Source: Coriobacteriales bacterium (GTDB taxonomy: Bacteria > Actinomycetota > Coriobacteriia > Coriobacteriales > UBA8131). Taken from it: a stretch of 64,000 nucleotides of DNA. Of this stretch, positions 32,160 to 62,672 are shown one piece after another. The stretch covers positions 3,038 to 67,037 of the forward strand of contig JAISGO010000038.1 in NCBI GenBank assembly GCA_031263025.1, written 5' to 3'. Numbering within the stretch: position 1 is the first letter of the stretch; each line of letters starts with the position of its first letter. Below the pieces are notes generated by a model. That model was not told the origin of the DNA and did not search any database. It worked only from the letters and a program-made list of their open reading frames with translations. The translations under genes and the position numbers were made by a program.

Positions 32160-33605
32160 ATGTATTACTATAGGCTGCCAAATCCATTTATTCAGCATTG
32201 CTACAAATGCGGCAAGAAGATCAACACTGAACATGGCCATGGTGAAAAATTTGTTTTCATGGCTGAGCTTGCAGATTATTTTAGCGATTGGGATGACTTT
32301 TTAAAGGCCAATCCAAAGGCAGCTACAAAAGAAGGACGGCATTATATCTTTTGCAAATCTTGTGCAAACCTGCTTGGCTGGCGCAGCGAAACCCAGATAG
32401 CTAAAGCACAAGAGAAAGAAAGATTGAGGGCCGTTAAGCAAGCCGAAAAGGTTGCTGTCAAAGAGGAAAAAGAACGACTGGCACAAGAAAAAATTGAGCA
32501 AGCTACTAAAGACCACAAAGCATACATTCAAGAAAACGCACCGAATTTTGAAGTTTTAGATCACTATCCAAAATTATTTGAACGGATTGAAGCAGAATGG
32601 CGGAATCCGGAATTAGCTACTTTTCTGGCGTTGAAAAATCACGGCAGAGCAACCGCAGATGAAGATAGTAAATTGTTCCCAGATATTTGCGTTATTCCAC
32701 AGGGAATTAGTTATAAGTGCGACTGCAACGATGAAAATAATATTGCAGTTATTGACATAGATTTACCTGATAGGGACTCAGTACCAAATATTCTTGGATT
32801 CCGATCGGCTGGGAACCACTTACCATTAAAAATGAATAAGTCTGAAACGAGAAAATTCTACGATGAAACCGTCTCGTGCCAAATATTGCTTGGAACAAAG
32901 ATTGCAATCGAACAAAATCTTAGTTCCAAAACAGTCGTTGCAAATGGCATAGTCAATTATGTTGACGGGGCAACTGGCCAAGATAAGCGCACATGTATTT
33001 TGTCCGTCGAAATTCCGCGTGAAAAATTTGAACGGATTAATTTCGATCGCATTGATCCTTATGAGTGCGTAAAGAGCTTTAAACCGATAATGGCAGGAGT
33101 ACTGCAAAATCTAACGCCTGTAAAACCGATTTTGACTTTTGACAAAAATGATCATCGTTTTATTGAATCTTCTGAAATCGTTGATAATTTAAGTGAAAAT
33201 CAAAACCTCGCGACTATGCTTTGGGAAGATTTTGAGCACTTGGTACGCGAGCTCTTCGAGCGTTATTTTGAGGGTGATGGAACCGAAGTAAGGGTTACGC
33301 AAGCCAGCCGCGACGGCGGAGTTGACGCGATAGCTTTTGATCCGGATCCGATCAGGGGCGGCAAGTTTGTGATACAGGCTAAGCGTTACAACAACGTGGT
33401 TCCGGTTTCTGCTGTGCGTGATTTATACGGCACAATGATTAATGAAGGCGCAACAAAAGGCATTCTTGTTACGACGGCCTATTACGGACCCGAAACCTAC
33501 GATTTTGCCAAAGATAAACCTATTTCGCTAATTGCCGGCTCCAATCTGGTTTATATGCTGGAACAGTATGGATATCACTTTCGAGTGGATTTAAAGGAAG
33601 AATAA
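32160..33605 (+). CDS. Mrr-like restriction endonuclease domain protein with ~340-aa N-terminal region of unknown function
   Basis: C-terminal WEDFEHLVRELF, DGGVDAIAF, FVIQAKRY, GILVTT (PD-(D/E)xK Mrr_cat). N-terminal CYKCG..CKSC pairs and a Lys/Glu coiled coil. Confidence 0.75.
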   Translation: MYYYRLPNPFIQHCYKCGKKINTEHGHGEKFVFMAELADYFSDWDDFLKANPKAATKEGRHYIFCKSCANLLGWRSETQIAKAQEKERLRAVKQAEKVAVKEEKERLAQEKIEQATKDHKAYIQENAPNFEVLDHYPKLFERIEAEWRNPELATFLALKNHGRATADEDSKLFPDICVIPQGISYKCDCNDENNIAVIDIDLPDRDSVPNILGFRSAGNHLPLKMNKSETRKFYDETVSCQILLGTKIAIEQNLSSKTVVANGIVNYVDGATGQDKRTCILSVEIPREKFERINFDRIDPYECVKSFKPIMAGVLQNLTPVKPILTFDKNDHRFIESSEIVDNLSENQNLATMLWEDFEHLVRELFERYFEGDGTEVRVTQASRDGGVDAIAFDPDPIRGGKFVIQAKRYNNVVPVSAVRDLYGTMINEGATKGILVTTAYYGPETYDFAKDKPISLIAGSNLVYMLEQYGYHFRVDLKEE

Positions 33606-33670: not shown

Positions 33671-33871
33671 AACGAACTGTCACATCCCTCCTCAACGCCC
33701 TCATGCGACTATTCCGTTGTAAATTCGAGGCATTTTGCCGCCTCGTTGCGTTAAGTATAGCGCTTATTTTTGATTTGTCAAGGCACGTATTATTTTCCGT
33801 TATGAATAACGGTGTAGTGTGGCGGTTGTTTGTATAAAGCGCCAGGTTTCGCATAATCGAAAGTCGTTTAT

Positions 33872-33920
33872 GAAGCATATTTTATACTAGCATAGTATAA
33901 GCTAGTATAAAATATGCTTC
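33872..33920. repeat. perfect 20-bp inverted repeat spanning the 3' end of the left transposase gene
   Basis: GAAGCATATTTTATACTAGC (33872-33891) / GCTAGTATAAAATATGCTTC (33901-33920). Confidence 0.8.
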
Positions 33921-35053
33921 AACTCTTCTAAGAACTTCTCCTTAGCGCTTCGATAACCAAGAGACTTGCGCCATTTGTTGTTGACCTTTTCGGTAGCCCG
34001 CGCCACGCCTTCGGCCCCGTATTCTGCGATGTTGTGGCCCTTCCTTATCCCCGCCTGGCGCAGTAGTCCGTTGCAGTTCTCGTTCGACCCTCTCTCCCAA
34101 GAATGATAAGCATGCGCATAGTAACAGCGCGTCCGGCACATGTGGATAAAGCCGAGTAGCTCGTACACGGAGGTCTCAAAGTCGTCTGGCCTCGTGAACT
34201 CGGTTCCGTTATCCCAAGTGATGCTCTTGAATATCGCCTGGAATAGCTTACTTCCGATGGTAAGCTCTAAATCATCGAACCATGCGACGACATTCTCATG
34301 GTCTTTTGATTCCAGGTAGGCAGTCAGGTATATGCGGGTCTTGCGCTCAAGTAGGGTCAAGACGACCTCTTTCCTGCCGCCGCGCTTACCGACCACTAGA
34401 TCTCCCTCCCAATGACCGAACTCCTCTCGCGCTTCTACCTCGGCCGGCCGCTCGTCGATGGATTCGCCTCGGGTATACACCTGCTTGTAGGTGTACTTCT
34501 TATGCTTCGCCTTGCGCCTCATCTCGGCCATCGGCAATTTGTCTGCCGAGTAGCCGAGCTTACCATTGTTGGCGTAGTTGTAGATGGTCTTCGTGCAGAC
34601 CGTCTCCGGCAGCTTCCCTTCCATCCTGGCCCGGCCGCAAGCCTCATCAGGCGAGCGCCTGTTCTCGATTATCTCTTGCGCGTACCAAAGCATCGCCTTT
34701 CGGTGCTGCGGTCTTTCGAGTTTGAGCTTCGGTCCCTTTCTCGCCCAACGCGCTTCTGCTCTTCTTTGCGCCACGTCCTCATGATAATAAGGAACCTCCT
34801 CCAACGCTTCACCATCTGACCGGCGTACCCGCCGCACTTCGAGGATTGAACCGCGTTCTATCTCGCGATAGATGGTCTTGCGGCACCTACCTAAGATCTT
34901 GGCGATCCTTGCCACCGGAAGATGAAGCCGGTTCAGAAACAAGTCCAGCGCGTTACGTTCCTTGTCGTTGAAGTACTTACCTTTTCGCTTTCGAACGCCT
35001 TCTTCATCGAGTCCGTCAAGGTACTCCTCCGCAAGTCCGTATATCTTGGGCAA
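33902..35053 (-). CDS. IS30-family DDE transposase (left)
   Basis: HWEGDL, TWDNGTEF, WERGSNENCNGLLR catalytic motifs; N-terminal HTH; TTG start. Confidence 0.85.
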   Translation of the reverse strand: MPKIYGLAEEYLDGLDEEGVRKRKGKYFNDKERNALDLFLNRLHLPVARIAKILGRCRKTIYREIERGSILEVRRVRRSDGEALEEVPYYHEDVAQRRAEARWARKGPKLKLERPQHRKAMLWYAQEIIENRRSPDEACGRARMEGKLPETVCTKTIYNYANNGKLGYSADKLPMAEMRRKAKHKKYTYKQVYTRGESIDERPAEVEAREEFGHWEGDLVVGKRGGRKEVVLTLLERKTRIYLTAYLESKDHENVVAWFDDLELTIGSKLFQAIFKSITWDNGTEFTRPDDFETSVYELLGFIHMCRTRCYYAHAYHSWERGSNENCNGLLRQAGIRKGHNIAEYGAEGVARATEKVNNKWRKSLGYRSAKEKFLEELKHILY

Positions 35054-35173
35054 ATCAGTTCGTTCCTTTCAATGCATAGTATATGCTTTGCTATACTATG
35101 CGGCTATCCGTTTCTTCTATCAGTTTGTCGATAAGATTTTACCCCTGCGGCGCACACCTTTAGCGTTTTCCGC

Positions 35174-35208
35174 TTGACAATAGTATAGTATATGCTATAC
35201 TATACTAT
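35174..35208 (+). promoter_or_regulatory. parA(L) promoter TTGACA-16-TATACT overlapped by the palindrome ATAGTATAGTATA-TGC-TATACTATACTAT
   Basis: TTGACA 35174-35179; IR 35180-35192 / 35196-35208; related IR GCATAGTATA/TATACTATGC at 35074-35101. Confidence 0.6.
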
Positions 35209-35269
35209 GTTAGGCTACTATAGAATAGTCTTCAATGTACTATGCTATGCGTGAGAAAGAGAGGTATGT

Positions 35270-35818
35270 ATGAAAACCGTTTTGTTGGTGAACCAAAAGG
35301 GAGGAAGCGGCAAGACCACCATCGCTGATGAGTTGGTCTTCAACCTGGAGCGAAAAGGCCACAAGGTGACCTTCCAATCGCTTGACGCCCAAGGCGGTTC
35401 TATACACTATGGCAGTATGCCAGACGAGGACACCGAGTACCGCGTGATCGACTCGCCCGGCGCCATGCCGAAAGAGTTCAAGAACTGGTGTTCGGCGGCT
35501 GACATCATCATCATCCCGACCAAACCCGGGATTCCCGACCTTGCGCCTTTCAATCGTACCTACTCCGCCGCCCGGCAGGCCGCGCCGAAAGCGCACATCG
35601 GCATCGTCGTCAATTTCTACGACGCCAGGCGGGTGGTCGATCGCAACTTCGTGGAGGAGTTCGTTAAGCCGCTCATGTTAGACGTCTTTGCCTATATCCC
35701 TTCCACCACCCAGGTGGCCCGCGCCCAGGCTGAACAGATCTCCGTCTTTGACTATGACCGCAACTCGGAAGTGGCTAAGGCGTTTGACGCTCTCGCAGAC
35801 AAGGTGTTGTCTCTATAG
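35270..35818 (+). CDS. parA: ParA/Soj-type partition ATPase (left)
   Basis: deviant Walker A NQKGGSGKTT; ~45% identical to 60782..61333. Confidence 0.85.
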   Translation: MKTVLLVNQKGGSGKTTIADELVFNLERKGHKVTFQSLDAQGGSIHYGSMPDEDTEYRVIDSPGAMPKEFKNWCSAADIIIIPTKPGIPDLAPFNRTYSAARQAAPKAHIGIVVNFYDARRVVDRNFVEEFVKPLMLDVFAYIPSTTQVARAQAEQISVFDYDRNSEVAKAFDALADKVLSL

Positions 35819-35879
35819 CAAATACTATACTTTGCTATACTATGCTATTATATAATATGCTAAGAAAGGAATATGCTAA

Positions 35880-36224
35880 ATGAGTACAGACATTTTCGCA
35901 GAGTCGGCGCAAGCTGCTTTAGACGCACAAGACGAAGCGATGTACGCACCGGTCCCTATGGATAAGCCCGATACGAGCAAGCGCCCGAAACGTGCCTCCC
36001 ACAAGACCTCAAAGCCGACGACTTCCGCCAGGAAAGCGGACACCGCACCCGGCGAGTATCACGTCAAGCCTGCGAACGAGCGACGCGACTGTAAGGTGCT
36101 CGTTGGGTTCACTCCGTCCGAGCGCGAGCTACTCGAGCTCATTAAGACCGCCGAGGAACGTCCGCTCACACAGGTGATCGTCCGGGCGGTCAAGGAATAC
36201 TATAAGAACCACTACCAAGCCTAG
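35880..36224 (+). CDS. ribbon-helix-helix (CopG-like) protein
   Basis: C-terminal RRDCKVLVGFTPSERELLELIK..VIVRAVKEYYKNHY; ~50% identical to 60170..60385. Confidence 0.6.
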   Translation: MSTDIFAESAQAALDAQDEAMYAPVPMDKPDTSKRPKRASHKTSKPTTSARKADTAPGEYHVKPANERRDCKVLVGFTPSERELLELIKTAEERPLTQVIVRAVKEYYKNHYQA

Positions 36225-36240
36225 TTGAAGGAGGGGCAGC

Positions 36241-37644
36241 ATGAGACATAAGTCTCGCGAGAAGATAACCACCTATACCCTCATGAACAAGAACACCCCT
36301 GTTCTTGAGTTCGAGTATGCTCTTGCTTCCTCCACTATAACTGCTATCACCGCTCTGATTAACCCGGCGTATGCGCCTCTCGACGCATCACGCGCTTATA
36401 GCGATGGCGTGATAACCGAGGAATCCCTCAACGAGTGGTGGAGGAAGCGGGGCATCCCCTCTTCCCGTCAACATTTAGCAAACGCAGAAGACGTACTGCC
36501 GGCTTCGATGATGGAGCTACTTGAACACAACTATGGTCTATCGCTTTCCGATCAGTATTGGCTCAACGATTCGCGCTCGCCCAAGAGATGGGCCGAAGTG
36601 AACTTCTTCACCAATCCTTTTAGTGTCGACATCGGCCGTGCGCTTTTCGGCGGGGTGTCTTCGGAGGAGGCATTAAGCAACGACTTTTCCCTTATCTCAC
36701 CCGACGTTACCACCGGCGGGGTCTTACAAAAGAAGTGGATTATCGACGAAGGCCAACGCGTTCTCGTCAAAGGCGCCGAGGGCCAAGATCGCCAACAGGT
36801 CTTTAACGAGGTGATTGCCACCGAGCTGTATAGCAGATTGCTACCGCCAGATGAATACGTTACTTATAAGCTTATCAAAGAGGGCCATAAAGTCTATTGC
36901 GCATGCGGGGACATGATAGACATTGACGAAGAACTTGTAAGCGCAAAAGCGATTCGGCTGCATTTCGCCCGAGAGGAGAAAACGAGCGACTACGAACATC
37001 TCGTAAATTCTTACGAAAAGCTCGGCGTCAGCCATGCGGTTACAGCTACTGCCTTTTCCAAAATGCTTGTCTGCGACGCGCTTATGGCAAACGAGGATAG
37101 GCATACGGGTAACTTCGGCGTCATTAGGGACGTGAACAGTCTGGAGATCAAACGCATCGCCCCCCTTTGGGATACCGGTAACTCTCTCTTCTTCGACAAT
37201 GCCAGTCTTCTTTTGACACCTGGCTACGAATGGGAGTTCCGTTCAAAACCGTTTGCGGCGCGTATGAAGACCCAACTGGAATATGTGGACGATTATTCTT
37301 GGTATGACCCCAAATCCCTCAAAGGGTTCAGAGATTACGTGGCAGAGAAACTTTCGGAGATCGCACTTTATAAATCGTCTGGCCTAGACGTAGCGATTGC
37401 CGCTAGTGTCGATTGCCGCCGCGACTATATAGACAAGCAAGCTCGCGAATGGCAACTGAATCACAGCCGGAATCATATGTACAACGAAGCCCAAATCGCT
37501 AAACCCAGCGACGGGAAAAATCAAGTTCAACCGAACCTCGGTCCGCACCACATGGAGGACCTTGTTGCCCAAACGACAAGGGTTTCCGAAGCCCGCGAAG
37601 AGACGCGCGGAGGGCATGGCGGGCACGAAGAACCTAAACGCTAG
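36241..37644 (+). CDS. HipA-like Ser/Thr kinase toxin homolog with portable C-terminal tail
   Basis: HipA_C catalytic loop MANEDRHTGNFGVI; RBS GGAGGGG; tail NLGPHHMEDLVAQTTRVSEA. Confidence 0.7.
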   Translation: MRHKSREKITTYTLMNKNTPVLEFEYALASSTITAITALINPAYAPLDASRAYSDGVITEESLNEWWRKRGIPSSRQHLANAEDVLPASMMELLEHNYGLSLSDQYWLNDSRSPKRWAEVNFFTNPFSVDIGRALFGGVSSEEALSNDFSLISPDVTTGGVLQKKWIIDEGQRVLVKGAEGQDRQQVFNEVIATELYSRLLPPDEYVTYKLIKEGHKVYCACGDMIDIDEELVSAKAIRLHFAREEKTSDYEHLVNSYEKLGVSHAVTATAFSKMLVCDALMANEDRHTGNFGVIRDVNSLEIKRIAPLWDTGNSLFFDNASLLLTPGYEWEFRSKPFAARMKTQLEYVDDYSWYDPKSLKGFRDYVAEKLSEIALYKSSGLDVAIAASVDCRRDYIDKQAREWQLNHSRNHMYNEAQIAKPSDGKNQVQPNLGPHHMEDLVAQTTRVSEAREETRGGHGGHEEPKR

Positions 37645-37656
37645 AAGGAAACGGTG

Positions 37657-38460
37657 ATGACGACCCAAGACCTCATAAACGCGCTACTGGAGCAACGCAG
37701 GTTGCAGATAAACGGTAACGTCTACTGGCAGACCCAGATCGACCTGGCCTATAACTCGAATAGGATCGAGGGTTCCCAACTCACCCACGAACAGACCCGC
37801 TACATCTTCGAGACACAGACGATCTCCGGCGAAAACGTTCCCGTAGACGACGTGGTGGAGATGAAGAATCACTTCCGCATGTTCTATTACATGCTGGACC
37901 ATTTCAAGGAACCCGTGAGCGTCGAGACCATCCAAAGCTATCAGGCAATCCTCAAGGCCGGCACCTTTATGTCGGAGGACCCGAAGATGAACGTGGGGGG
38001 ATGGAAGCTCATCCCGAACGCGGTCGGCAACACCACTACGTCGCTACCGGGACAAGTCGATAACGACGTGAGGGCGCTCCTCGCCGCCTATAACAGGCAC
38101 GTCGAATCCGGCCACGAGGTGACGCTCACGCAGATCGCCGCCTTCCATGCACAGTTCGAGGCGATCCACCCCTTCCTCGACGGCAACGGGCGTACCGGTC
38201 GCATCATCATGTTCCACCAATGTCTCCAGGCGGGACTTATCCCGCCCATCGTCATGGACAAGACCAAGGCGGCCTACTACGCCGGCCTCGACCGCTGGCA
38301 GAACCATAACGACAGCAAACCGCTTCTGGACTATCTCGAAGAATGTCAGGCTGATTATCGCTCAGAATGCGAGTTCCTCCTTGAGGGCAAAGGCAAAGAT
38401 TTGAGTGGCCGCAAACCAGCCGATGTTGGCTACGAGGACATCTTCAAGGCGGACGAATAA
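37657..38460 (+). CDS. Fic-domain AMPylase, class II (N-terminal inhibitory motif)
   Basis: HPFLDGNGRTGR canonical Fic motif; SNRIEG matches (S/T)xxxE(G/N); starts 9-12 nt after the HipA-like stop. Confidence 0.85.
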   Translation: MTTQDLINALLEQRRLQINGNVYWQTQIDLAYNSNRIEGSQLTHEQTRYIFETQTISGENVPVDDVVEMKNHFRMFYYMLDHFKEPVSVETIQSYQAILKAGTFMSEDPKMNVGGWKLIPNAVGNTTTSLPGQVDNDVRALLAAYNRHVESGHEVTLTQIAAFHAQFEAIHPFLDGNGRTGRIIMFHQCLQAGLIPPIVMDKTKAAYYAGLDRWQNHNDSKPLLDYLEECQADYRSECEFLLEGKGKDLSGRKPADVGYEDIFKADE

Positions 38461-38477: not shown

Positions 38478-38497
38478 ACGCCGCCTGCGGGCGGCGT
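38478..38497 (+). terminator. rho-independent terminator candidate after fic
   Basis: ACGCCGCC-TGCG-GGCGGCGT followed by TTCCTTT. Confidence 0.6.
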
Positions 38498-38537
38498 TTC
38501 CTTTGGCGGCTTTAGCCGCCTCATGACGTTCTTTCCA

Positions 38538-38590
38538 TTACCGTCTCAAGGTTGTATAATCACATTTAACGGTAACGCTGAATAGCCCGT
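38538..38590 (+). other. oriT candidate (left module): 7-bp IR with 24-nt loop followed by GGTAACGC
   Basis: TTACCGT (38538-38544) / ACGGTAA (38569-38575) then CGCTGAATAGCCC; same layout as the right module; upstream of mobC. Confidence 0.4.
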
Positions 38591-38810: not shown

Positions 38811-39242
38811 ATGGCAAGACCTCACTTGAAAGATAACGGCAGAAGCCGGAGGGTTCACTTCGCTGTCACTCCAAAGGAGTATTCGAAGATAAAGGTTCAG
38901 GCTAAAAGTCTGAACCTTACCATCTCCGCCTATATTCGTCAGCGTGCCCTCTCAGATGTTACTGTCTTTTACGCCGGTGACGACGAAGGTCTCGCTAAGA
39001 TCCGTTCACAGCTACTCCGCGCTTTCGCAAGGAACAATCAAGCGGTAAAGGCAATCAACTACATTAGTAACGGTCTTCGCGAAAACTACTTTCCAGATTC
39101 GATTAGGGAAGACCTCAAGAATTTCGCAAACGAGAACGCTCCTTATTTCTCCGATACCGCGAATCAAATCAGCGATTGCCTTGCCGGTATTTCTGACTTC
39201 TATCATTCATTCAACAAGCTTCTTAAAGAAGGGAGAATCTAA
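38811..39242 (+). CDS. mobC: MobC-type relaxosome accessory protein (left)
   Basis: RRVHFAVTPKEYSKIK..ISAYIRQRAL RHH; TAATG overlap with next gene. Confidence 0.65.
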   Translation: MARPHLKDNGRSRRVHFAVTPKEYSKIKVQAKSLNLTISAYIRQRALSDVTVFYAGDDEGLAKIRSQLLRAFARNNQAVKAINYISNGLRENYFPDSIREDLKNFANENAPYFSDTANQISDCLAGISDFYHSFNKLLKEGRI

Positions 39243-39742
39243 TGCTAGACATTTGCGCTAAAAGGGATACGCCTTACGTGTATCCAAGCCTGCGTAGTCT
39301 CATTTCCGAGGACTGTCGTTTCAGTCTCTTCAAGGCGGATAGTCTGCTTAAAGGAGACATAATCGGCGAGTATCATGCTAAACTTTGCGGTCTATTCTGG
39401 GGGAGGCAACCTCGTAGCGGTCGAGCTACGCCTCTAGTCGCCTGTCTCTTCCTTATCTATACGGCAGACGAAAATAACAAAATCGTTGAACTTGAAAATA
39501 AGTTCATTACCGCTTCCGCTTGGGATAATAACCTTCATAAACCTCTTTTCGACTCGCCTTCGGCACCGCCACCAGACGACACTCTAGCTTATTCTGATTG
39601 GCTCGCTTCATTGCATATTGACGAATCCGCAGAACCGCAAAAATATCTTGCACTTAGGAGCATCCCCATCGGTAGTTATATCACTTGCACATTCGCCCTC
39701 AACCGTAACGGGCATGGGGTACTTCGCGACTGGATCGTCTGA
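39242..39742 (+). CDS. hypothetical protein (left module only)
   Basis: translationally coupled on both sides (TAATG, TGATG); no counterpart between mobC and relaxase on the right. Confidence 0.5.
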   Translation: MLDICAKRDTPYVYPSLRSLISEDCRFSLFKADSLLKGDIIGEYHAKLCGLFWGRQPRSGRATPLVACLFLIYTADENNKIVELENKFITASAWDNNLHKPLFDSPSAPPPDDTLAYSDWLASLHIDESAEPQKYLALRSIPIGSYITCTFALNRNGHGVLRDWIV

Positions 39743-41244
39743 TGCCTGAACTCCGTCTTCAAGCCGCACACCGTAAATGCTTTGGCGTTGCTGAGTATCT
39801 ACGTTACGGGAAAGGCGAAAGCTACTTTACGAACAAACGTGAAGGAAAGACTCGTGTTCGCGCCTTCGGTGGTTTTAACCTTGCCGGCGACATCTTCGAC
39901 TGGGATCAGCAGATGGACGAAACTCGAGAGATGGCCGGAAACGACCTCCCGTATCGTGGGCGCCGGGCACGGACTTACAATCACTTCGTCCTCTCGCCCG
40001 ATCCTGCGGACGGGCTTTCCTATGAAGATGTCCTAGCCCTCGCGGAAGAATACGCCGCGCACTTCTTCGGCGACGGTGAAGTCCGTGGTACCATTGGCCA
40101 GTTTGAGAGCGCCATTATCATACATGACGACGGAACGAACAATGTGGTACATGCGCATGTGATTGTGAACAATACCGATCTCGATACCCTCAAGCGTATT
40201 CATCGTGACCGCAGAGACATCAAGGAAATGTATGACTTCGCGGAAGAGCTTGCGAAATCGCATGGGTATCATTCTTTTACGGAGACACATGAGTCTGTTC
40301 CTGCTAAGGTCGGCGAGTTCGAGATGGGAACAAGGATATTCTCCAAGCCTAGACCGATTAGTTTTGCCGAGCGTCACGCGATGGAAGCGCATGAAGGCTA
40401 CTCCTGGAAGGAGGATCTCGCCCAGCGTGTCCGGGTCGCCTATGAATGCGCGAGCGACATGAAGGGTTTCGTCCTTGCCTGCAAGGACCTCGGGGTGACG
40501 GTGGAGAAGTCGAAGGCGAAAAACTACGCCGGCGACTTCCTCTACCGTATGGCCGACGAGCCCACGCATTGCTGTCGTGCCAACAAGCTCGGCACAGACT
40601 ACCGCTCCGGCAACCTCACCCGCCACTTCGCCCGAAACGAGAAGCGTGGCCTCTGGAAGCCACGCGATGGCCAGGCGGCCGAAGTCGCGAAGGTGTTCTG
40701 GCCGAAGGGTATCCGCCGGGTCGGCAACATCGAGAAGGGAAGCGGTATCAGCCTCCACGAGGCCTTCCAGGTGATTGACTTCATGCGCGAAGTGCATGTG
40801 AGCGACTACACGCAGATAAAGCGGATTAGACCCTCTTCCGAGGACATGCGCGAGCGTCTGGAACGTTTCGCCTACGTCGCCGAACACGCCCACCTCAAGG
40901 TCAGGGACACCACGAAACCGGCCGCGAAGCCGCAGGCAAAGCAAAGCGCACCTATCGTCGAGGACGGCAAGATCGTCGGCACGGCGGACGCGAAGACCAA
41001 GGCGCTGTTCGCCACCGTGAACAAACAAGCGGCCGCAAGAAAGAAACAGATTGCAGCTATGACACCATCGGAGCGTGCTGCCGCAGCAGTCGCAGCACAA
41101 CGAAACGCACAACGAAGCCGGCCACAGCAAGCACAGCGCCGCGCCGCGCCTCAGCCACAACGTCCCGCGCCGCGACCCCAAGCGAGACCGCAACCGCAGC
41201 CACAGCGCAGCCGTCCGCCTACCCGCCACTCTCCGCAACGCTAA
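39742..41244 (+). CDS. MOBQ/MobA-VirD2-type relaxase (left)
   Basis: IHDDGTNNVVHAHVIVNNTD (HxDx..HxH), N-terminal Tyr region AEYLRYGKG; Pro/Gln/Arg-rich tail. Confidence 0.8.
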   Translation: MPELRLQAAHRKCFGVAEYLRYGKGESYFTNKREGKTRVRAFGGFNLAGDIFDWDQQMDETREMAGNDLPYRGRRARTYNHFVLSPDPADGLSYEDVLALAEEYAAHFFGDGEVRGTIGQFESAIIIHDDGTNNVVHAHVIVNNTDLDTLKRIHRDRRDIKEMYDFAEELAKSHGYHSFTETHESVPAKVGEFEMGTRIFSKPRPISFAERHAMEAHEGYSWKEDLAQRVRVAYECASDMKGFVLACKDLGVTVEKSKAKNYAGDFLYRMADEPTHCCRANKLGTDYRSGNLTRHFARNEKRGLWKPRDGQAAEVAKVFWPKGIRRVGNIEKGSGISLHEAFQVIDFMREVHVSDYTQIKRIRPSSEDMRERLERFAYVAEHAHLKVRDTTKPAAKPQAKQSAPIVEDGKIVGTADAKTKALFATVNKQAAARKKQIAAMTPSERAAAAVAAQRNAQRSRPQQAQRRAAPQPQRPAPRPQARPQPQPQRSRPPTRHSPQR

Positions 41245-43942: not shown

Positions 43943-44788
43943 TTATACATCGTCTTCTCTGCCTACACCGCGCTGAGGGTTCCTGTTTTGTCCTTGGAAG
44001 TCCCTTCCTGCTTGCGCGGCGCTCGCCCTTGTCGCTCCGGCGACTATATCATCCATCTTCCGAGGACCGAGGTGAGGTACAGCCGGCTTAGATTTATCCT
44101 CGTTAATTTTCTGTCCCGTTCTCTCTTTCGAGAAGTCAGTACCGACAAGGCAATCCTCATAAAGGAATAGCTTCAAGGGGGTCGGTTCGTTCGTTTCGTA
44201 GAAGTCCGTGAGCGCTTTCCTGAACCGGCTTAACTTGTTCTCCGCGATAGCGAGGATGCCGAACCCCTGAGAAATGAGGTAATGATTCGCTGCGAGTTGC
44301 GCCGTCCGTTTATTGCCGTCGAAGAAAAGCTGCTTACGACAGACCCAGCACATTATGTCGAGGCCCTTCTCGGGGCCTTCGGGTCCACGTAACATGCTCT
44401 CGAACCCTTCCTTATCCATCTGTTCGTTTGGAATGTCGGGTCGCCATGTCGTGCCGCCGATCCTCACGTCCACCGTCCTGACTTTCCCAGGTTCCCTCGT
44501 AACCCCGGCCTCGCCGATAAGCTGGTTGAACTCTTTCAGCATCCGGAAATCAAGTGGCACCTCGATTTCCTGCAAGCAATACTCCCAAGCGTGTTTGAGG
44601 TTGTTGATGGCGATGGTCTCGTTTACGGAGAGACCTGACACGGTTCTCCCCTCGAAGATCTCGGCGGTGTCCGGAAAAGTTACGTTGATTCCCTCTAGCC
44701 TGGCCTCTTTCCATATACTATCGACCACAAGACGCTTGGCGTACCAAACGTTCTCCTCTTGCGTCATATCGAACTTGTTCTCGAACAT
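43943..44788 (-). CDS. Fic/Doc-family protein with non-canonical motif (Gln in place of catalytic His) and portable C-terminal tail
   Basis: CRKQLFFDGNKRTAQLAANHYL aligns to HxFx(D/N)(A/G)NKR; N-terminal ARLEGINVTF. Confidence 0.7.
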   Translation of the reverse strand: MFENKFDMTQEENVWYAKRLVVDSIWKEARLEGINVTFPDTAEIFEGRTVSGLSVNETIAINNLKHAWEYCLQEIEVPLDFRMLKEFNQLIGEAGVTREPGKVRTVDVRIGGTTWRPDIPNEQMDKEGFESMLRGPEGPEKGLDIMCWVCRKQLFFDGNKRTAQLAANHYLISQGFGILAIAENKLSRFRKALTDFYETNEPTPLKLFLYEDCLVGTDFSKERTGQKINEDKSKPAVPHLGPRKMDDIVAGATRASAAQAGRDFQGQNRNPQRGVGREDDV

Positions 44789-47110: not shown

Positions 47111-47132
47111 AGTCTGCTCCTTTCTTTAATAT

Positions 47133-47161
47133 AGTATAGTATATACTATGCTATATGTCAA
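47133..47161 (-). promoter_or_regulatory. promoter TTGACA-17-TATACT with left-module operator motif
   Basis: minus strand TTGACA (47161-47156), TATACT (47138-47133); spacer CATAGTATATAC resembles the parA(L) operator. Confidence 0.55.
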
Positions 47162-47240: not shown

Positions 47241-48326
47241 TCACTTCCTCGACCCCAGCTTCTTCATGCCGATGCTGGCGTAGTAGTTGTAGGCCGGCGT
47301 GAACTTGTAGTAGAGCTTCTTGTACTTCGAGCCTGAGCGGTACTTGCTCGGCACCTTGTAGTACTTATAGACGTAGCCCGCCGTCAAGGTCTTCACCTTC
47401 TTGCTCTTGTAGTATAGGGTGAGCTTTCCTTTGGGGCAGTTGTCCGTGTAGTAGATCACCTCGTGCATGGAGCGGTCGTACTTCGCGTAGAGCGCCGCCG
47501 AGTACTTCGGCGGGTTCGAGGTGAAGCTGTAGGTGAAACCTTCGTTCCAAGTCGAGGGGTTGACCACGACCTTTACGCTATAAGTTTGCGTAAGGTCACT
47601 CGCGTAAGCGTCATAGACAACCCCGTCCTGGTCCGAGAAAGGCTTCGCGTTCACGCTACTCTTCTTGTGCCAGGCACCGCCGTAGTAGAGATAGAGGTCG
47701 ATGGCGGAACCATAGATACCTGAGATGTCGATGGTCTTATCGAAGTCGTAGAAGCTGGAATAACGGGTGTAGGTGGTAGCCTTCGCCGAATAGGTCGGCG
47801 TTCCCCGGTAGAAGGTGACGTTAAACAGGATACTTTCGTATCCTCTAAGACTGGGCACCGCATCATTATCGGCGATCCCGTAGTTCACCTCGTTATCCCA
47901 GAACTCGTTATCGTTCACGTAGGCGAGCTTGATGACCGTCCCCGGCGTCCAAGCGGGATTGAAGTCGAAGGGTACGACTTTTTGCGAGGTGGCGTCGGCG
48001 GTGATGTCGGTATCGCTTCCGCTGAAGTAGTCCCCGTTCTGATAGCTCGGCGCTTCGTTCGGCAGATACCAGGCCCCGCCGTCGTAGACGACCAGGTCGT
48101 ACTCCTTTCCCACCGTAAAGCCGGATATGTTGAGGGCCGTGCCTGCCGCCTTTGCGCTAGGCACCTGAAGCTCTTGTGCTGTAAGTGACCCGGAAGCGGC
48201 ATAAGCCTCCTTGTTCCCTCTCGTCAGGCCGGCCAGATTGAGGAGACCCGCCGCCAGCGCTACCGCGAGTAGGCAGGCGACGACCCATCTCCCTGTTTTC
48301 CTTGTAAAACCCTTGCTTTCCATCAT
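47241..48326 (-). CDS. secreted protein of unknown function (Tyr/Lys-rich C-terminus)
   Basis: ATGATG 48326 after AAGGAG; signal/TM segment WVVACLLAVALAAGLL. Confidence 0.6.
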   Translation of the reverse strand: MMESKGFTRKTGRWVVACLLAVALAAGLLNLAGLTRGNKEAYAASGSLTAQELQVPSAKAAGTALNISGFTVGKEYDLVVYDGGAWYLPNEAPSYQNGDYFSGSDTDITADATSQKVVPFDFNPAWTPGTVIKLAYVNDNEFWDNEVNYGIADNDAVPSLRGYESILFNVTFYRGTPTYSAKATTYTRYSSFYDFDKTIDISGIYGSAIDLYLYYGGAWHKKSSVNAKPFSDQDGVVYDAYASDLTQTYSVKVVVNPSTWNEGFTYSFTSNPPKYSAALYAKYDRSMHEVIYYTDNCPKGKLTLYYKSKKVKTLTAGYVYKYYKVPSKYRSGSKYKKLYYKFTPAYNYYASIGMKKLGSRK

Positions 48327-48391
48327 GTACTCCTTAGTCGTTAAACCGTTTGCGTAAAACCTTCGTGTCGTCCATAGGCTCCTTTCTTTCT

Positions 48392-52533: not shown

Positions 52534-52534
52534 C

Positions 52535-55038: not shown

Positions 55039-55078
55039 TATATACAAGCTATAAATATTTATTTATAGCTTGTATATA
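55039..55078. promoter_or_regulatory. perfect 19-bp inverted repeat (right-module operator type) upstream of 53728..54993
   Basis: TATATACAAGCTATAAATA-TT-TATTTATAGCTTGTATATA. Confidence 0.6.
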
Positions 55079-59023: not shown

Positions 59024-59779
59024 TTATATCTCTGGTGGGTCTTGAATCGGTGGGTCTACAAAGAACCCGTCGTCATCGCGGTCAGGTTGATAGTGCGCTA
59101 CGATTCTGACTTCATCTGCTCTGGCGCTAAGGCGCGAGGGCTGCATTAAGCCGACCTTATCGTAGGCGGAAAGAAAGCGTGTCTCGAGAAGGGAATTGTC
59201 GATTAGTGGGTCGTCCTGGGTTCTCACTAGATAGTCGAACTCGTTTAGGCCCTTGTATTCAAAGGCGTTGCGGACGACCTCAACAGAGGCCTTCTCGAGG
59301 TCATCAAAATACTTTGCACAAATGAACGTCAGGTCGTAGAGGTCGCGGATACGGTCGCGGTGCAGATAGGCCGAGGCCTTCATCTTGCAAAGCTCGTCAA
59401 TAGAGTAGACGAGTATCCCGTTTATGGTTCTCGTATCGGTATCAAAGTCAATATCGCGGCGGCGATAGGAAAGCTCGACTTTAAGGGGGGTCGAAGGATC
59501 GCCATAGTTGATGAGTGCGCGCTTGACAGTATTGGTGTCCTTTCCGATGCGGTAATCATAGCTACTCTTCTCGCAGAATGTTGAAACAATCTTAAAAAGG
59601 GCGTCAGAGGACTTTTCATATCTCTCCCCCTCTCCGTCCAGGTCTATGTCAACGGAGTTGCGGTCGAGATCGTAGCAGAACATCAAAGCCGTGCCGCCCT
59701 TCAAAACGAAGCGGCTTGGATCGGCGTTGATGGCCGCGACAAGTTCCCTCATCACCGAAACATGTTTATCGAAGTCCAT
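59024..59779 (-). CDS. AbiEii/DUF1814-type nucleotidyltransferase toxin
   Basis: FVLKGGTALMFCY..RNSVDIDLD motifs. Confidence 0.75.
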   Translation of the reverse strand: MDFDKHVSVMRELVAAINADPSRFVLKGGTALMFCYDLDRNSVDIDLDGEGERYEKSSDALFKIVSTFCEKSSYDYRIGKDTNTVKRALINYGDPSTPLKVELSYRRRDIDFDTDTRTINGILVYSIDELCKMKASAYLHRDRIRDLYDLTFICAKYFDDLEKASVEVVRNAFEYKGLNEFDYLVRTQDDPLIDNSLLETRFLSAYDKVGLMQPSRLSARADEVRIVAHYQPDRDDDGFFVDPPIQDPPEI

Positions 59780-60167
59780 GATTCCCCTTGAAGTCTAGCC
59801 AAGTGCAGCCATATTCCTTGCCGACGGCACGGTCTATCTTGTCCCAGTTCGGCGACTGCCTGAGCGAAGTGAGCTTGTCGAAGAAAAGCGGCGTGTACCT
59901 CTCATTGCCGATGAAGTATTCACGGGTACCCTGGAAGGAGGAATAATAGCCCTCCTGTAAGAGGTCGATCGCGGCGCGGACGTGGTTGGCGACGGGAAGT
60001 CCGCAGGGGTTGTCGATTCCGTAGTTGATTCCCCATTTGCCGAGCGGAGACTCCGTGGTGTCGAAGACGTTAGGCTTGTCCCAATGCAGGGCTGGATAAT
60101 GCCAGTCTTGGAAGGTGTCCAAGGTATCCGGCAGGTTGAAGGCGAATGTCCCGGTGAGGTACTTCAT
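59766..60167 (-). CDS. hypothetical 133-aa protein overlapping abiEii by 14 nt (not AbiEi-like)
   Basis: coupled to abiEii; no recognisable wHTH; Trp/Tyr/Gly-rich. Confidence 0.5.
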   Translation of the reverse strand: MKYLTGTFAFNLPDTLDTFQDWHYPALHWDKPNVFDTTESPLGKWGINYGIDNPCGLPVANHVRAAIDLLQEGYYSSFQGTREYFIGNERYTPLFFDKLTSLRQSPNWDKIDRAVGKEYGCTWLDFKGNHGLR

Positions 60168-60525: not shown

Positions 60526-60789
60526 CTAATCTTTCCTTATCAGGTCAGCGATGATTAGGTCGCGGACATAAGCCGAGAAAGAAGAATGGAGTTTCGCTGC
60601 CTTTGCCTTCGCCTGCCATTTGAGCTTATCAGGCATCCTTAGAATGACCGAGACATTCTCCTCTTTCGTGCCGTCCGGGGGCAGGGGCAGGCGTACCCGA
60701 CTCCCTTCCACTTTCTGATACTTGCGTTTCTGCTCTGTGGCGGCTTTCGTGAATATCTCAGCAGATTTCTTCTCAGCCATTTCAACCAA
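60526..60789 (-). CDS. ParG-like RHH partition protein
   Basis: overlaps the parA(R) stop by 8 nt; VSVILRMPDKLKWQAKAKAAKLHSSFSAYVRDLI. Confidence 0.55.
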   Translation of the reverse strand: MVEMAEKKSAEIFTKAATEQKRKYQKVEGSRVRLPLPPDGTKEENVSVILRMPDKLKWQAKAKAAKLHSSFSAYVRDLIIADLIRKD

Positions 60790-61333
60790 CCTCCTTGATT
60801 ATCCTGTCGCAAAGCTCCTCGAAAGCAGCTGCGGCCTTATTCTTCTTGTTGAACTCATATATTGACATCTGAGCGGCCTGTGCCTGGACGATAGCTGTCG
60901 TGGTAGGAATAGTCGTCCATACCGGCATCTCGCAGTTAGCGAGGTAACGGAGGAAGTCGCTATCAGCGAGGCGCCGTTTATCGTAGAAGTTCACGGCTAT
61001 GCCAAGGTGGGCTTTAGTCTTGGACTTCACTGCCTTGTCCCAGCAGCGCATAAGCGGAATCTGGTCTAAGGTGGACGCCCGTGTCGGCATCACGATGAGA
61101 TCAGCCGCGCGGCACCACTCAGCAAAGTCTTTGTGGAGTGTAGGCGGAGTATCTACGATCAAAAAATCATCGTCGTCTTTGGGGAGGGTTGGCGCATGTA
61201 GGACGCCACCTTGCGGGTCGAGGTTTTGGAAGCTCACCTTGTAGCCCCGGCGTTCCAGGGCAAACGCGATCTCATCAGAGACTGTGGTTTTCCCTACCCC
61301 ACCTTTTTGATTGGCTACAAGAACCGTCTTCAT
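60782..61333 (-). CDS. parA: ParA/Soj-type partition ATPase (right)
   Basis: NQKGGVGKTT deviant Walker A. Confidence 0.85.
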   Translation of the reverse strand: MKTVLVANQKGGVGKTTVSDEIAFALERRGYKVSFQNLDPQGGVLHAPTLPKDDDDFLIVDTPPTLHKDFAEWCRAADLIVMPTRASTLDQIPLMRCWDKAVKSKTKAHLGIAVNFYDKRRLADSDFLRYLANCEMPVWTTIPTTTAIVQAQAAQMSIYEFNKKNKAAAAFEELCDRIIKEVG

Positions 61334-61526: not shown

Positions 61527-62672
61527 TTGGCCGGACTTACCATAGAACTTGAGCAATATCTTGACGAAGGAAGCTGCAATCGTCCAGGTAAATACCTTAA
61601 CGCGCTCGACCGGCATTTCATAGACATAGCCCTAAATGAATTGAAAATGCCGGTTTCCAAAATCGCGAAGACCTTGGAACGCAGCCGACGGACAATCCAG
61701 AGGGAGATTAGGAGAGGTTCCACTTGGGAAGCGGCCGAAAAAAATACTTATGCTATTGGCAGAAAAAGTAAACAAGATAGGGTGCTGAAGTACCACTGGG
61801 AGGCAGCGGAACGCCTTTTTCGTAAAAGGCAGAAAAATAAAGGATATGGTCTGAAACTAGCCGACGAGAAGTACATGGACGCTGCCGTTTGGTATCACAA
61901 GATGATAGTCGTTGAAGGCCGGTCGCCTGATGAAGTGTGCGGTCGGGCCCGAATTGAAGGGAAGTTGTCGGCGTATGTGTGTTTTAAGACGCTTTACAAC
62001 TACTCGCATAACGGCGTACTTGGGTACAGCGATAAGAACCTGCCGATGGCAGAAATCGAGCGGAAAGCTCAAAAGAAAAGATATACCTATAAGCAGAAGT
62101 ATGTCCGAGGGGAGTCGATTGAGTTCAGGTCGGATGCGGTAAACAAAAGACAGGAGTTCGGGCACTGGGAAGGTGATTTGATTGTAGGTAAGCGTGGCGG
62201 GAAGAAGGAGGTAATCTTAACCTTGGTCGAAAGGAAGACCCGCTATCTTATCGCGGTAGTCCTCGCTTCAAAGGAACATGAGAATGTAGCCGCGTGGTTT
62301 GATCAAGTGGAGCTTATCATCGGGGAAGAGCGCTTCGCCAATATTTTCCGCTCTGTCACCTGGGACAATGGATCGGAGTTCGCCCGTCCGATTGACTTTG
62401 AGACGTCGATATTCGAGCTCCTCGGCATAAGCGGTTCATATCGCACTAGATGTTTCTATGCTCATGCCTACACGTCCTGGGAAAGAGGCTCTAACGAGAA
62501 CTGCAATGGTCTTATTCGCAGGAACGGCATTAAGAAAGGCCATGACATAGAAGAATATGGACAAGAAGTTGTAAGACAGGTTGCTGAGAAGATTAACAAC
62601 AAATGGCGCAAGATCCTAGGGTATCATTCAGCAAAGGAGTATTTCGCAAGAGAAATGAAACTTATAGAATGA
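61527..62672 (+). CDS. IS30-family DDE transposase (right)
   Basis: HWEGDL, TWDNGSEF, WERGSNENCNGLIR; TTG start after AGAGGAGG; ~60% identical to the left copy. Confidence 0.85.
   Translation: MAGLTIELEQYLDEGSCNRPGKYLNALDRHFIDIALNELKMPVSKIAKTLERSRRTIQREIRRGSTWEAAEKNTYAIGRKSKQDRVLKYHWEAAERLFRKRQKNKGYGLKLADEKYMDAAVWYHKMIVVEGRSPDEVCGRARIEGKLSAYVCFKTLYNYSHNGVLGYSDKNLPMAEIERKAQKKRYTYKQKYVRGESIEFRSDAVNKRQEFGHWEGDLIVGKRGGKKEVILTLVERKTRYLIAVVLASKEHENVAAWFDQVELIIGEERFANIFRSVTWDNGSEFARPIDFETSIFELLGISGSYRTRCFYAHAYTSWERGSNENCNGLIRRNGIKKGHDIEEYGQEVVRQVAEKINNKWRKILGYHSAKEYFAREMKLIE

Follow-up and report, generated by a model that had tools for sequence, protein, structure and literature searches.

A locus in a gut Coriobacteriales bacterium (GCA_031263025.1, contig JAISGO010000038.1) contains two homologous modules in which related small-protein genes precede different gene pairs, which raises the question of what the small protein does and whether the genes behind it act together. 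In the left module, the small protein RHH114 is followed by a HipA-superfamily kinase and a class II Fic enzyme, with neither a HipB-type nor a VbhA-type gene beside them. The initial annotation of this DNA proposed that the kinase and the Fic enzyme might control each other, or that the ribbon-helix-helix (RHH) protein might be a common antitoxin and regulator of an exchangeable toxin cassette. We analysed the whole 64,000-nt stretch (the window; Table 1), in which the four genes claimed (the small proteins of both modules, the kinase and Fic) are present where they had been placed and the composition of the left cargo is as described. Our preferred reading, to which we give a probability of about 0.6, is that this is an ordinary mobile-element cargo site, with RHH114 as an omega/ParG-like regulator and the kinase and Fic as independent, self-contained cargo.

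Table 1. Coordinates of features in the window, left to right
Feature	Position	Strand	Description
IS30-family DDE transposase, left	33902..35053	-	NCBIfam transpos_IS30, 207 bits (cutoff 80)
Divergent transposase/parA promoter region	35072..35250	.	Clusters of TATACTATGC-type repeat
Small Walker ParA ATPase, left	35270..35818	+	182 aa, type Ib size; Pfam CbiA, AAA_31, ParA
Second TATACTATGC-type cluster, parA-RHH114 spacer	35811..35878	.	Holds exact 16-mer at 35830-35845
RHH114	35880-36224	+	114 aa; ~60-aa low-confidence N-terminal region, then probable ribbon-helix-helix C-terminus
HipA/CtkA-superfamily Ser/Thr kinase	36241-37644	+	467 aa; HipA-like N-domain, kinase core, low-confidence C-terminal tail
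Class II Fic, AMPylase-type	37654/37657-38460	+	Cis inhibitory motif; Pfam Fic 1.4e-14
GC-rich hairpin ACGCCGCC-tgcg-GGCGGCGT, then T-rich tail	38479..38505	+	Read directly from the sequence
Mobilization genes, left	38811..41244	+	NikA-like, orf166, MobA/VirD2-type relaxase; Pfam
Third promoter-like site, TTGACA-N17-TATACT	47125..47161	-	Carries left-element repeat
AbiEi (orf133) and AbiEii	59024..60167	-	AbiEi 60167-59766, AbiEii 59779-59024; PADLOC
RHH71	60385-60170	-	RHH114 homologue; preceded by an AT-rich repeat region of its own (140 nt)
ParA, right, with overlapping small RHH-like orf87	60526..61333	-	
orf87	60789-60526	-	Second small RHH-like gene of the right module, directly after ParA
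IS30-family transposase, right	61527..62672	+	NCBIfam transpos_IS30, 195 bits

Two diverged copies of a mobilizable element

Sequence comparison identifies the two modules as diverged, inverted copies of one mobilizable element type, integrated 20 kb apart. Each copy has a backbone of an IS30-family transposase, a small ParA, a small protein, cargo, a NikA-like protein and a relaxase, so that an IS30 DDE transposase, a relaxase and an accessory protein occur as one unit; identity between left and right is 57% for the transposase, 43% for ParA, 49% for the RHH proteins, 37% for the relaxase and 28% for NikA. The left ParA matches NCBIfam ParA_partition at E 4e-19, which is under the cutoff, and Pfam identifies the left NikA-like protein (2.8e-11) and relaxase (8.4e-17). 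Homologous small-protein genes thus stand ahead of different cargo in two homologous modules, as had been noticed from the sequence, and a variable cargo position therefore exists. Matching backbones were found in two further loci, L082 and L139. Homologues of RHH114 or RHH71 occur in none of 80 relaxase-based metagenome loci (E<0.01), and the cargo slot is therefore comparable only in L082 and, loosely, in L139. No DNA nearly identical to the window was found in the plasmid collection. Scanning all 64 kb of the window for Rfam families and tRNAs gave no matches, and hence neither an RNA antitoxin nor a tRNA attachment site is indicated within it. Repeat clusters at 33871-33921, 47125-47161, 55039-55095 and 62696-62752 were considered as terminal inverted repeats; they resemble operator/promoter sites or palindromes more than clean transposon ends.

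The order of genes within the slot is not fixed. L082, the closest full-length relative of the kinase with a readable locus, belongs to the same element type and reads kinase, terminator, RHH60, NikA and relaxase, with Fic absent. Its kinase thus lies upstream of the small-protein homologue, from which it is separated by the terminator hairpin and 140 nt, contrary to the proposed invariable arrangement of an RHH gene followed by a slot.

The small proteins

The RHH114 gene begins 61 nt after parA, immediately downstream of the small Walker ATPase, with a ribosome site (AAGGAA) 8 nt 5' of its start; the JGI annotation has an 88-aa version that starts at M27. A homology of about 50% between the two small proteins had been claimed and holds: over 57 residues, RHH114 shares 49% identity and 82% similarity with RHH71 (E 1e-24). 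A ribbon-helix-helix fold for RHH114 is probable and short of proof, with indirect support from structural modelling and distant relatives. The AF2 model is poor (pLDDT 66, with ~50-65 in the N-terminal part) and has an extended segment followed by helices at 79-92 and 96-111. Foldseek matches to this poor model include the RHH proteins ParG (1p94, the top match), Arc, TacA2 and CdbA, which make up four of five matches and both of the top two, all with E >=4. RHH114 itself has no match in Pfam or NCBIfam; two distant relatives, P0246 and P0249, score high enough for Pfam RHH_1.

The family is tiny. Protein searches of the plasmid collection with RHH114 found none, a word-indexed search with the RHH alignment recovered only the proteins of the window itself, and an exhaustive HMMER search of 1.84 billion representatives gave strong scores to the two window proteins only, the rest being weak, generic RHH proteins. 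Comparative support therefore comes from three members. RHH71 has no direct adjacency to ParA, with orf87 intervening, and no similarity was detected between orf87 and either RHH114 or RHH71. Since orf87 rather than RHH71 holds the ParG position of the right element, a partition role is not general to the RHH114/71 family. The initial annotation does not mention orf87.

Repeats and predicted transcription units

The 16-nt repeat CTTTGCTATACTATGC is present, as reported earlier, in exact copies at 35086-35101 and 35830-35845. Its core TATACTATGC has 14 sites in the window with at most one mismatch, against 1.3 expected; these include promoter-like sites at 35174 (+) and 47161 (-) and a position just before the RHH114 gene. 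The first of these promoter-like sites (TTGACA-N16-TATACT, 35174-35201) lies between the transposase gene and parA, and the site at 47125..47161 faces leftward genes from 46979 to 43410, among them a degenerate Fic. The right element has its own distinct motif at equivalent places, with nine sites against 0.04 expected. The most likely role of RHH114 is that of an omega/ParG-like DNA-binding regulator and partition adaptor of the element, an analogy-based assignment made because repeats specific to each element lie across the parA promoter and at other intergenic places; these repeats could instead be bound by the helix-turn-helix of the transposase or by orf87. Downstream of fic, the hairpin with its T-rich tail is likely to end a parA-RHH114-kinase-Fic transcription unit, although the consensus terminator scan does not list it.

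Kinase, Fic and AbiE cargo

The kinase gene has a GGAGG upstream and starts 16 nt past the RHH114 stop. Its product carries the catalytic loop NEDRHTGNF noted earlier, and a family alignment of 23 sequences shows no variation at D286, R287, H288, N291 or D311; the DRHxxN loop and the DxG metal site align with FDRHNGNW and FDCGS of CtkA. Sequence matches are modest (Pfam HipA_C 26.5 bits, below the 30.5 threshold, E 5.9e-6; CtkA E 1e-6 in a PDB sequence search; NCBIfam YjjJ weak, E 0.029). The AF2 model (pLDDT 80, pTM 0.82) has the HipA/CtkA fold over its full length, with Foldseek matches to CtkA (1.3e-9), S. oneidensis HipA (3.1e-9 across 480 columns) and HipA of E. coli (1e-6), each with probability 1.0. 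An exact look-up of this kinase (P0001) returned no record, and a family search gave 856 matches. We surveyed kinase neighbourhoods in 81 genome loci of the family and 3 metagenome loci of close relatives (84 in all). No neighbour is conserved in the 81 genome loci, where every neighbour family occurs in at most nine, and the window contains no HipB, HipS or HIRAN-type partner gene. About one quarter of family members seem to bear an extra N-terminal domain; among 10 relatives tested this is HTH_17 in six and Bro-N in two. On a Selenomonas plasmid, a HicB-family gene overlaps a kinase of this family, and some members may therefore form toxin-antitoxin pairs. The family as a whole is large, mobile-element-borne and normally without a partner gene.

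Class II Fic enzymes are, by definition, inhibited in cis. The publicly called Fic protein has 267 aa, from an ATG at 37657 that lies 12 nt after the kinase stop. Both motifs attributed to it earlier are borne out: the active site is intact (HPFLDGNGRTGR at 38167, which fits HxFx(D/E)GN(G/K)RxxR), and SNRIEG at residues 35-40, N-terminal to the core, matches SNKIEG in the alignment with CdFic, a class II enzyme (PDB 4x2e; E 7.6e-23). PADLOC assigns the protein to the single-gene candidate PDC-S04 (3.3e-86). Its relatives number at least 5,677.

The AbiE pair occupies the position that the left element gives to the kinase and Fic. It had been described as orf133 and abiEii; the gene pair is as stated, while orf133 is no unassigned reading frame but the AbiEi antitoxin (PADLOC 1.7e-39), and the pair is therefore a complete AbiE system. 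AbiEii is identified by PADLOC (5e-62) and Pfam (81.8 bits, cutoff 22.5; 9.5e-23). Both components match the AbiE type IV toxin-antitoxin/abortive infection system, from which the right-hand AbiEi departs by its shortness (133 aa). On a Megamonas plasmid, an AbiEi homologue with 43% identity stands before a CtkA-like kinase rather than AbiEii. The idea that orf133 is a detached kinase N-domain, by analogy with HipS/HipT, was rejected (hhalign probability 1.4%, no PDB sequence match).

Is kinase-Fic a functional pair?

The kinase and Fic genes share a strand, are separated by 9-12 nt and have no intervening terminator, an arrangement that would suit a two-enzyme module in which one partner modifies or licenses the other (the kinase phosphorylating the inhibitory helix of Fic, for example, or Fic AMPylating the kinase) or both strike one pathway during phage infection. 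Comparable neighbourhoods exist. A Bifidobacterium angulatum assembly (L068) has an independent tandem, with a 37% identical kinase and a 30% identical class II Fic 31 nt apart; in the metagenome locus L083, the start of an orthologous Fic, 63% identical across its N-terminal 35 residues, is 123 nt away from that of a divergent orf501-kinase-kinase run holding the nearest kinase relatives, among them P0006 (43% identical); and a VbhA-Fic pair lies beside a CtkA-like kinase operon on the Megamonas plasmid. The survey nevertheless does not support the two genes as a conserved unit, with the tandem in one of 81 genome loci (L068) and a divergent neighbour in one of three metagenome loci (L083). 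No Fic lies within 6 kb of the kinase in 78 of the 81 genome loci, and it is adjacent in one only; the frequency of Fic-bearing loci does not differ between kinases (3/84 loci, 858 kb) and relaxases (2/80 loci, 1,033 kb). The L082 kinase has no downstream Fic. Among Fic relatives, the three nearest with an examined neighbourhood lack an adjoining kinase and are solitary or beside other Fic genes, and PADLOC classes this type of Fic as a one-gene candidate. Moreover, the L068 Fic is 30% identical to that of the window, against 42-59% for the best 120 solo relatives, and this far greater divergence suggests an independent, possibly chance, juxtaposition. A functional two-enzyme module is thus very unlikely, and we hold it equally improbable that the kinase and a class II Fic constitute a mutually regulating defence/toxin module of Actinomycetota that was assembled repeatedly, in the window, in L068 and among the neighbours in L083.

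Role of the small protein

The RHH114 gene ends so close to the kinase gene that it might encode a HipB-like antitoxin and autorepressor of the kinase, in which case a type II toxin-antitoxin pair would stabilize the element. The L082 kinase again neighbours an RHH homologue, and the HicB-family gene on the Selenomonas plasmid offers a further parallel; the N-terminal DNA-binding fusions (HTH_17, Bro-N) in many kinase family members make a DNA-binding partner a recurrent theme. Against this, RHH71 is placed equally before AbiEi/AbiEii, where the kinase is absent, and RHH60 of L082 lies downstream of its kinase, past the terminator hairpin. No small upstream gene is conserved among the 81 loci, and RHH114 also follows ParA and has repeats in common with the parA promoter. 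We consider this explanation quite unlikely. The broader proposal of a common antitoxin for both cargo pairs is not supported, because the right pair has its own AbiEi, the Fic is a cis-inhibited class II enzyme and the kinase family has no conserved partner in 81 loci.

That RHH114 is purely a ParG-type centromere-binding partner of ParA, with cargo merely inserted downstream and no regulatory link, is unlikely but comes close to our reading of RHH114 itself. The gene lies directly after that of a 182-aa ParA with repeat clusters on both sides of parA, its N-terminal region is modelled at low confidence, and ParG is the top, non-significant fold match. RHH71 does not fit: the unrelated orf87 takes the ParG position in the right element, and RHH71 comes with a separate promoter region. 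The initial annotation had named such a partition-only role as a possible outcome, which therefore agrees with the data for RHH114 and not for RHH71. The repeat also occurs at the 47161 promoter, which is unrelated to partition, and no separate promoter-like site was found ahead of the kinase gene, so that the cargo would be co-regulated anyway.

Under the preferred reading of a regulated cargo site, RHH114 would bind the repeats at the divergent transposase/parA promoter, in the parA-RHH114 spacer and at the third promoter at 47161, and would thereby repress a predicted parA-RHH114-cargo operon. Its flexible N-terminal tail would probably make it a ParA adaptor. The kinase and Fic would ride in the operon as two independent cargo genes of defence or toxin type, with a putative role in defence, and Fic would be held off by its own SNRIEG helix.

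Relation to known systems

In ParF-ParG type Ib partition (TP228), a small Walker ATPase comes before a small RHH protein that has a flexible tail at its N-terminus, and iterated repeats lie close to the promoter. The window differs in that the fold match is non-significant, the sister element has orf87 in the ParG position and additional genes downstream appear to be co-transcribed. From CdFic, PDC-S04 and SoFic the Fic protein differs in nothing of substance: it shares HxFx(D/E)GNGRxxR, an N-terminal SxxxEG in the same chain and a length of ~240-270 aa, and its apparent co-transcription with a kinase is unusual for the family and not conserved. In contrast to HipA, CtkA and YjjJ, the window kinase is under the HipA_C threshold and has no HipB, HipS or HIRAN partner. 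YjjJ (HipH) is monocistronic and has an N-terminal helix-turn-helix (PMC8262856); many relatives of the window kinase are likewise solitary, some with a fused helix-turn-helix.

The closest parallel is with delta-omega-epsilon-zeta of the Inc18 plasmid pSM19035, in which omega is a global regulator. Omega is an RHH ParB with 7-bp repeats lying across the promoters of copS, delta and omega; RHH ParBs touch their ParA through the N-terminus (PMC9499535), and there is linkage between the delta-omega and omega-epsilon-zeta determinants (PMC3074150). The window resembles this arrangement in the order of a ParA-type ATPase, a small RHH gene and toxin-type genes, in short direct and inverted repeats placed across the ATPase promoter and ahead of the RHH gene, and in the flexible RHH N-terminus (PMC9499535, PMC3074150). 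An RHH protein as common antitoxin and regulator of an exchangeable toxin cassette had been thought unusual; control of a co-transcribed toxin cassette by an RHH protein that also serves ParA is not, and omega of pSM19035 is a case in point (PMC9499535, PMC3074150). The host here is an integrated, transposase-borne mobilizable element rather than a plasmid, binding and regulation are predicted, and the cargo is a kinase with Fic, or AbiE, rather than epsilon/zeta. When the RHH profile was searched against PDB sequences, no RHH protein came up, omega included.

Implications

If our reading is true, the locus would be a further case of a familiar pattern, in which a regulated cargo site beside partition/regulatory genes is filled with interchangeable, self-contained defence or toxin genes; a new mechanism would follow only if the kinase and Fic truly cross-regulate. 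The analysis also has by-products of modest value. These are a large, uncharacterised family of HipA/CtkA-like kinases, mostly solitary and sometimes fused to HTH_17 or Bro-N; a short AbiEi-like protein paired with AbiEii or a CtkA-like kinase; and a small family of IS30-transposase-borne mobilizable elements of gut Coriobacteriales with a putative omega-like regulated promoter set.

Two copies of one mobilizable element

All four genes described in the initial annotation are present where it placed them, the motifs that it quoted for the kinase and Fic are all found, and its 16-nt repeat is exact in both copies. The window has a chromosomal composition (~59% GC) and contains two mirror-image gene sets. 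On the left, an IS30-family transposase diverges from a forward run of genes for ParA (182 aa), RHH114 (a small protein of 114 aa), the kinase, Fic, a NikA-like protein, orf166, a relaxase and orf247. On the right, an IS30-family transposase and ParA are followed by orf87, RHH71 (the homologue of RHH114), AbiEi, AbiEii, a NikA-like protein, a relaxase, orf238 and a UPF0102 protein. Because the gene sets mirror each other with pairwise identities of 28–57% (IS30, 57%; RHH, 49%; ParA, 43%; relaxase, 37%; NikA, 28%), the two modules are divergent copies of a single type of integrated mobilizable element, and in both the variable genes lie between RHH and mobilization genes. The extra small RHH-like gene of the right element, orf87, overlaps the end of parA and occupies the place where ParG classically lies; it has no relation to either RHH114 or RHH71.

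A pilus/surface-protein cluster with a sortase and a 1022-aa SpaA prealbumin-fold repeat protein lies between the two mobilization modules (47241-53305). The outer flanks carry an Mrr-type restriction endonuclease (PADLOC type IV methyl-directed enzyme, 1e-44) and a DUF2971 protein (PADLOC PDC-S31), and the entire region from 32 to 64 kb resembles a defence island.

Features of the two elements (window positions)
Feature	Position	Strand	Remark
Outer-flank genes	32160-33605; 62964-63920	+; +	low GC, ~37-42%
Left repeat	33890		next to transposase stop, within 24-nt perfect palindrome
Left IS30-family transposase	33902-35053	-	207 bits
Left repeats	35074-35101; 35183-35250		216-nt region between divergent transposase and parA genes
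TTGACA-N16-TATACT promoter-like site	35174-35201		overlapped by left repeats
Left repeats	35826-35860		directly ahead of RHH114 gene
RHH114	35880-36224	+	ATG at 35880; AAGGAA 8 nt 5' of ATG
Kinase	36241-37644	+	GGAGG ahead; start 16 nt past RHH114 stop
Fic	37657-38460	+	alternative GTG start at 37654; start 9-12 nt past kinase stop
GC-rich hairpin, T-rich tail	38479-38505		3' of Fic stop
Promoter-like site	38532-38560		between Fic hairpin and NikA-like gene
Repeat/promoter-like site region	47125-47161	-	far from parA; faces leftward genes 46979-43410
Left repeats	47134-47151		overlap TTGACA-N17-TATACT site (-), near-identical to parA promoter-like site
Right ParA	61333-60782		
Right motif copies	55072		also at parA promoter (12/12 consensus promoter at 61415-61387), ahead of RHH71 and next to transposase end
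Right IS30-family transposase	61527-62672		

Cargo proteins

The kinase falls under the Pfam HipA_C threshold (26.5 against 30.5 bits), and the single match in a PDB sequence search is CtkA of Helicobacter pylori (E 1e-6). Its AlphaFold model, based on 23 homologues, is good (pLDDT 80, pTM 0.82) and matches CtkA (1.3e-9), full-length HipA (3e-9 over 480 columns) and HipT. Residues D286, R287, H288, N291 and D311 do not vary in the family alignment. The protein is thus predicted, from sequence and model, to be an intact HipA-superfamily kinase with a HipA-like N-domain. The family comprises 856 matches and, among the matches listed, about one quarter of the reading frames have an N-terminal extension of at least 55 residues. 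Ten extended members were tested; six have HTH_17 (L169, L079, L077, L069, L080, L055) and two have Bro-N (L031, L054). These are DNA-binding domains fused N-terminally to the HipA-like body, hence the database labels "excisionase" and "DNA-binding protein". The architecture resembles that of YjjJ/HipH, a monocistronic kinase with an HTH at its N-terminus (PMC8262856).

Fic matches the Pfam Fic family (1.4e-14) and, among solved structures, is closest to CdFic (4x2e), where SNRIEG pairs with SNKIEG and HPFLDGNGRTGR with HPFQDGNGRIGR in the alignment. It is by sequence a textbook class II enzyme and fits the PADLOC single-gene candidate PDC-S04 (3.3e-86), so a separate Fic antitoxin is not expected. 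A second Fic-domain gene in the left element (43943-44788, minus strand) has a degenerate active site, QLFFDGNKRTAQ, in which the catalytic His is replaced by Gln. On a Coriobacteriales contig (L167, 1241-2896), a 44%-identical homologue of this degenerate Fic lies in tandem, directly 5' of a 46%-identical homologue of the active Fic, which could represent a pair of pseudo-enzyme and enzyme.

On the right, orf133 matches PADLOC AbiEi (1.7e-39) and its neighbour matches AbiEii (PADLOC, 5e-62; Pfam, 9.5e-23). With orf133 assigned by homology to AbiEi, the two right-hand cargo genes make up a full system of known type. A Megamonas funiformis plasmid (NZ_CP048628.1, 4930-7385) has the order VbhA, class I Fic, second VbhA-family gene, AbiEi-like gene, kinase; its AbiEi-like protein is 43% identical to orf133, and the gene is overlapped by that of a 325-aa CtkA-like HipA kinase. 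The partner of the short AbiEi-like protein is AbiEii in the window and a kinase on the plasmid, which suggests a promiscuous antitoxin-type partner.

Neighbourhoods of kinase and Fic relatives

Kinase neighbourhoods were compared at 81 loci, 80 from a scan of genomes of different species and one from a metagenome contig (L001). The commonest neighbour family is a VirB4-like conjugation ATPase, no family occurs at more than nine loci, and no conserved small gene was found 5' of the kinase among the 81. At a single locus, L068 of a Bifidobacterium angulatum assembly, Fic directly follows the kinase, 31 nt apart; the kinase and the Fic there, the latter also class II, are 37% and 30% identical to those of the window. 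At L024, an unrelated Fic lies 2 kb from the kinase. No Fic enrichment was found, with any detectable Fic at 3 of 84 kinase loci (858 kb) versus 2 of 80 relaxase loci (1,033 kb).

Four loci (L082, L083, L001, L084) hold the closest relatives of the kinase. L082 belongs to the same type of element, in the order kinase, hairpin, 140-nt spacer, RHH60, NikA-like protein, relaxase, orf247-like protein and UPF0102; RHH60 is 34-37% identical to RHH71 and RHH114, its gene is 3' of the kinase, and the locus has no Fic. L083 has two tandem kinases, and a Fic orthologue (63% identical over the first 35 residues) on the opposite strand, 123 nt away from where the divergent orf501-kinase-kinase run begins. 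Tandem kinase-family pairs occur at two unrelated loci (L005, 5953-8693; L083, 1814-4601). Kinases are solitary in L001 and L084 and, with an HTH, in an annotated Collinsella record; on a Selenomonas plasmid, a HicB-family gene overlaps the kinase.

The Fic family has >5,600 matches. Three of its closest members (L165, L166, L167), whose neighbourhoods were compared, have no kinase next to Fic. An unrelated 65-aa gene lies 5' of Fic in L165 (the nearest homologue, 59% identical), Fic is close to the contig end with an oxidoreductase on the opposite strand in L166, and L167 has a tandem of Fic2-like and Fic-like genes. Direct repeats of ~110 nt (~215-330 and ~1575-1690; ...CTCTTCTCGCGCGCCGGCAGCCA...GGATAAA.AT.CGGAGAAGAACGG...CACCCGTCACGCTT.CAAGA) bracket Fic and the 65-aa gene in L165, which may be a cassette-type mobile unit. 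By these neighbourhoods, the two enzymes do not form an obligate pair, and neither has the small protein as a conserved partner.

The small protein and the repeats

Over 57 residues, RHH114 shares 49% identity and 82% similarity with RHH71 (60385-60170, minus strand; E 1e-24), in agreement with the ~50% first reported. Neither protein matches Pfam or NCBIfam. The AlphaFold model of RHH114 is poor (pLDDT 66), with helices at 79-92 and 96-111 after an extended VLVGF segment and low confidence over the N-terminal 60 residues; the JGI gene call has a shorter form of 88 aa. RHH proteins (ParG, Arc, TacA2, CdbA) make up four of five Foldseek matches and take the first two places, but none of the matches is significant. 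An exhaustive HMMER search of 1.84 billion representatives gave strong matches to the two window proteins only and nine weak matches, two of which pass the Pfam RHH_1 threshold. An RHH fold is probable for both proteins. A metagenome contig with a related IS30-transposase/ParA/relaxase element (L139, 8278-8667) encodes, just 5' of its NikA-like gene, a 129-aa protein arranged like RHH114: its N-terminal region is long and basic, and its C-terminus is RHH-like by eye; it has no detectable sequence similarity to RHH114 and no Pfam match.

The left-element core TATACTATGC occurs 14 times at up to one mismatch, versus 1.3 expected. The right element has its own motif, ATAATTATATAA (nine matches versus 0.04 expected), at equivalent positions. 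Further left-repeat copies at 47125-47161 indicate that the left element may extend to ~47.2 kb; the leftward genes that they face include the degenerate Fic. A 24-nt perfect palindrome (TGAAGCATATTTTATACTAGCATA / TAAGCTAGTATAAAATATGCTTCA, 33871-33921) overlaps the left transposase stop, holds a left repeat, and could be an element end, terminator or binding site. At 55039-55095, a right-element repeat copy forms a 19-nt perfect palindrome 5' of orf421 (54993-53728).

A proposed partition regulator with toxin cargo

All the parts are of types already described: a class II Fic, a HipA/CtkA-superfamily kinase, an AbiE pair, a type Ib ParA with a probable RHH partner, an IS30 transposase, and a MobA/VirD2-type relaxase with a NikA-like protein. 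Their layout, with element-specific repeats over several promoters, a ParA gene and a small RHH gene, then toxin-type genes, matches that of delta-omega-epsilon-zeta in pSM19035, the nearest precedent. Omega is an RHH ParB whose 7-bp repeats overlap the copS, delta and omega promoters, and the N-terminus of such ParBs contacts the cognate ParA (PMC9499535); delta-omega is linked with omega-epsilon-zeta (PMC3074150). By this analogy, the arrangement appears to be an omega-type "partition regulator plus toxin cargo" cassette in variant form, here borne by an integrated mobilizable element. RHH114 is taken to be an omega/ParG-like regulator, probably also a ParA adaptor, and would bind the left repeats; the transposase HTH and, on the right, orf87 are alternative binders. 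As the stretch from parA to the Fic terminator showed no promoter-like site, kinase and Fic would be passengers co-transcribed with parA-RHH114.

That RHH114 is purely a ParG is unlikely, given orf87 and the promoter-like site at 47161. A role as antitoxin of the kinase has slightly less in its favour and is quite improbable: the RHH gene adjoins the kinase in the window and in L082, and DNA-binding fusions recur in the kinase family, but RHH71 precedes AbiE and a terminator is present in L082. True cross-regulation between kinase and Fic is the most doubtful reading. Tight gene spacing and recurrence in L068 and L083 speak for it; the neighbourhood statistics speak against it, as does the divergence of the L068 Fic from that of the window, which suggests independent juxtaposition of the two genes. 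If true, such cross-regulation is the sole reading that would raise the locus above a known kind.
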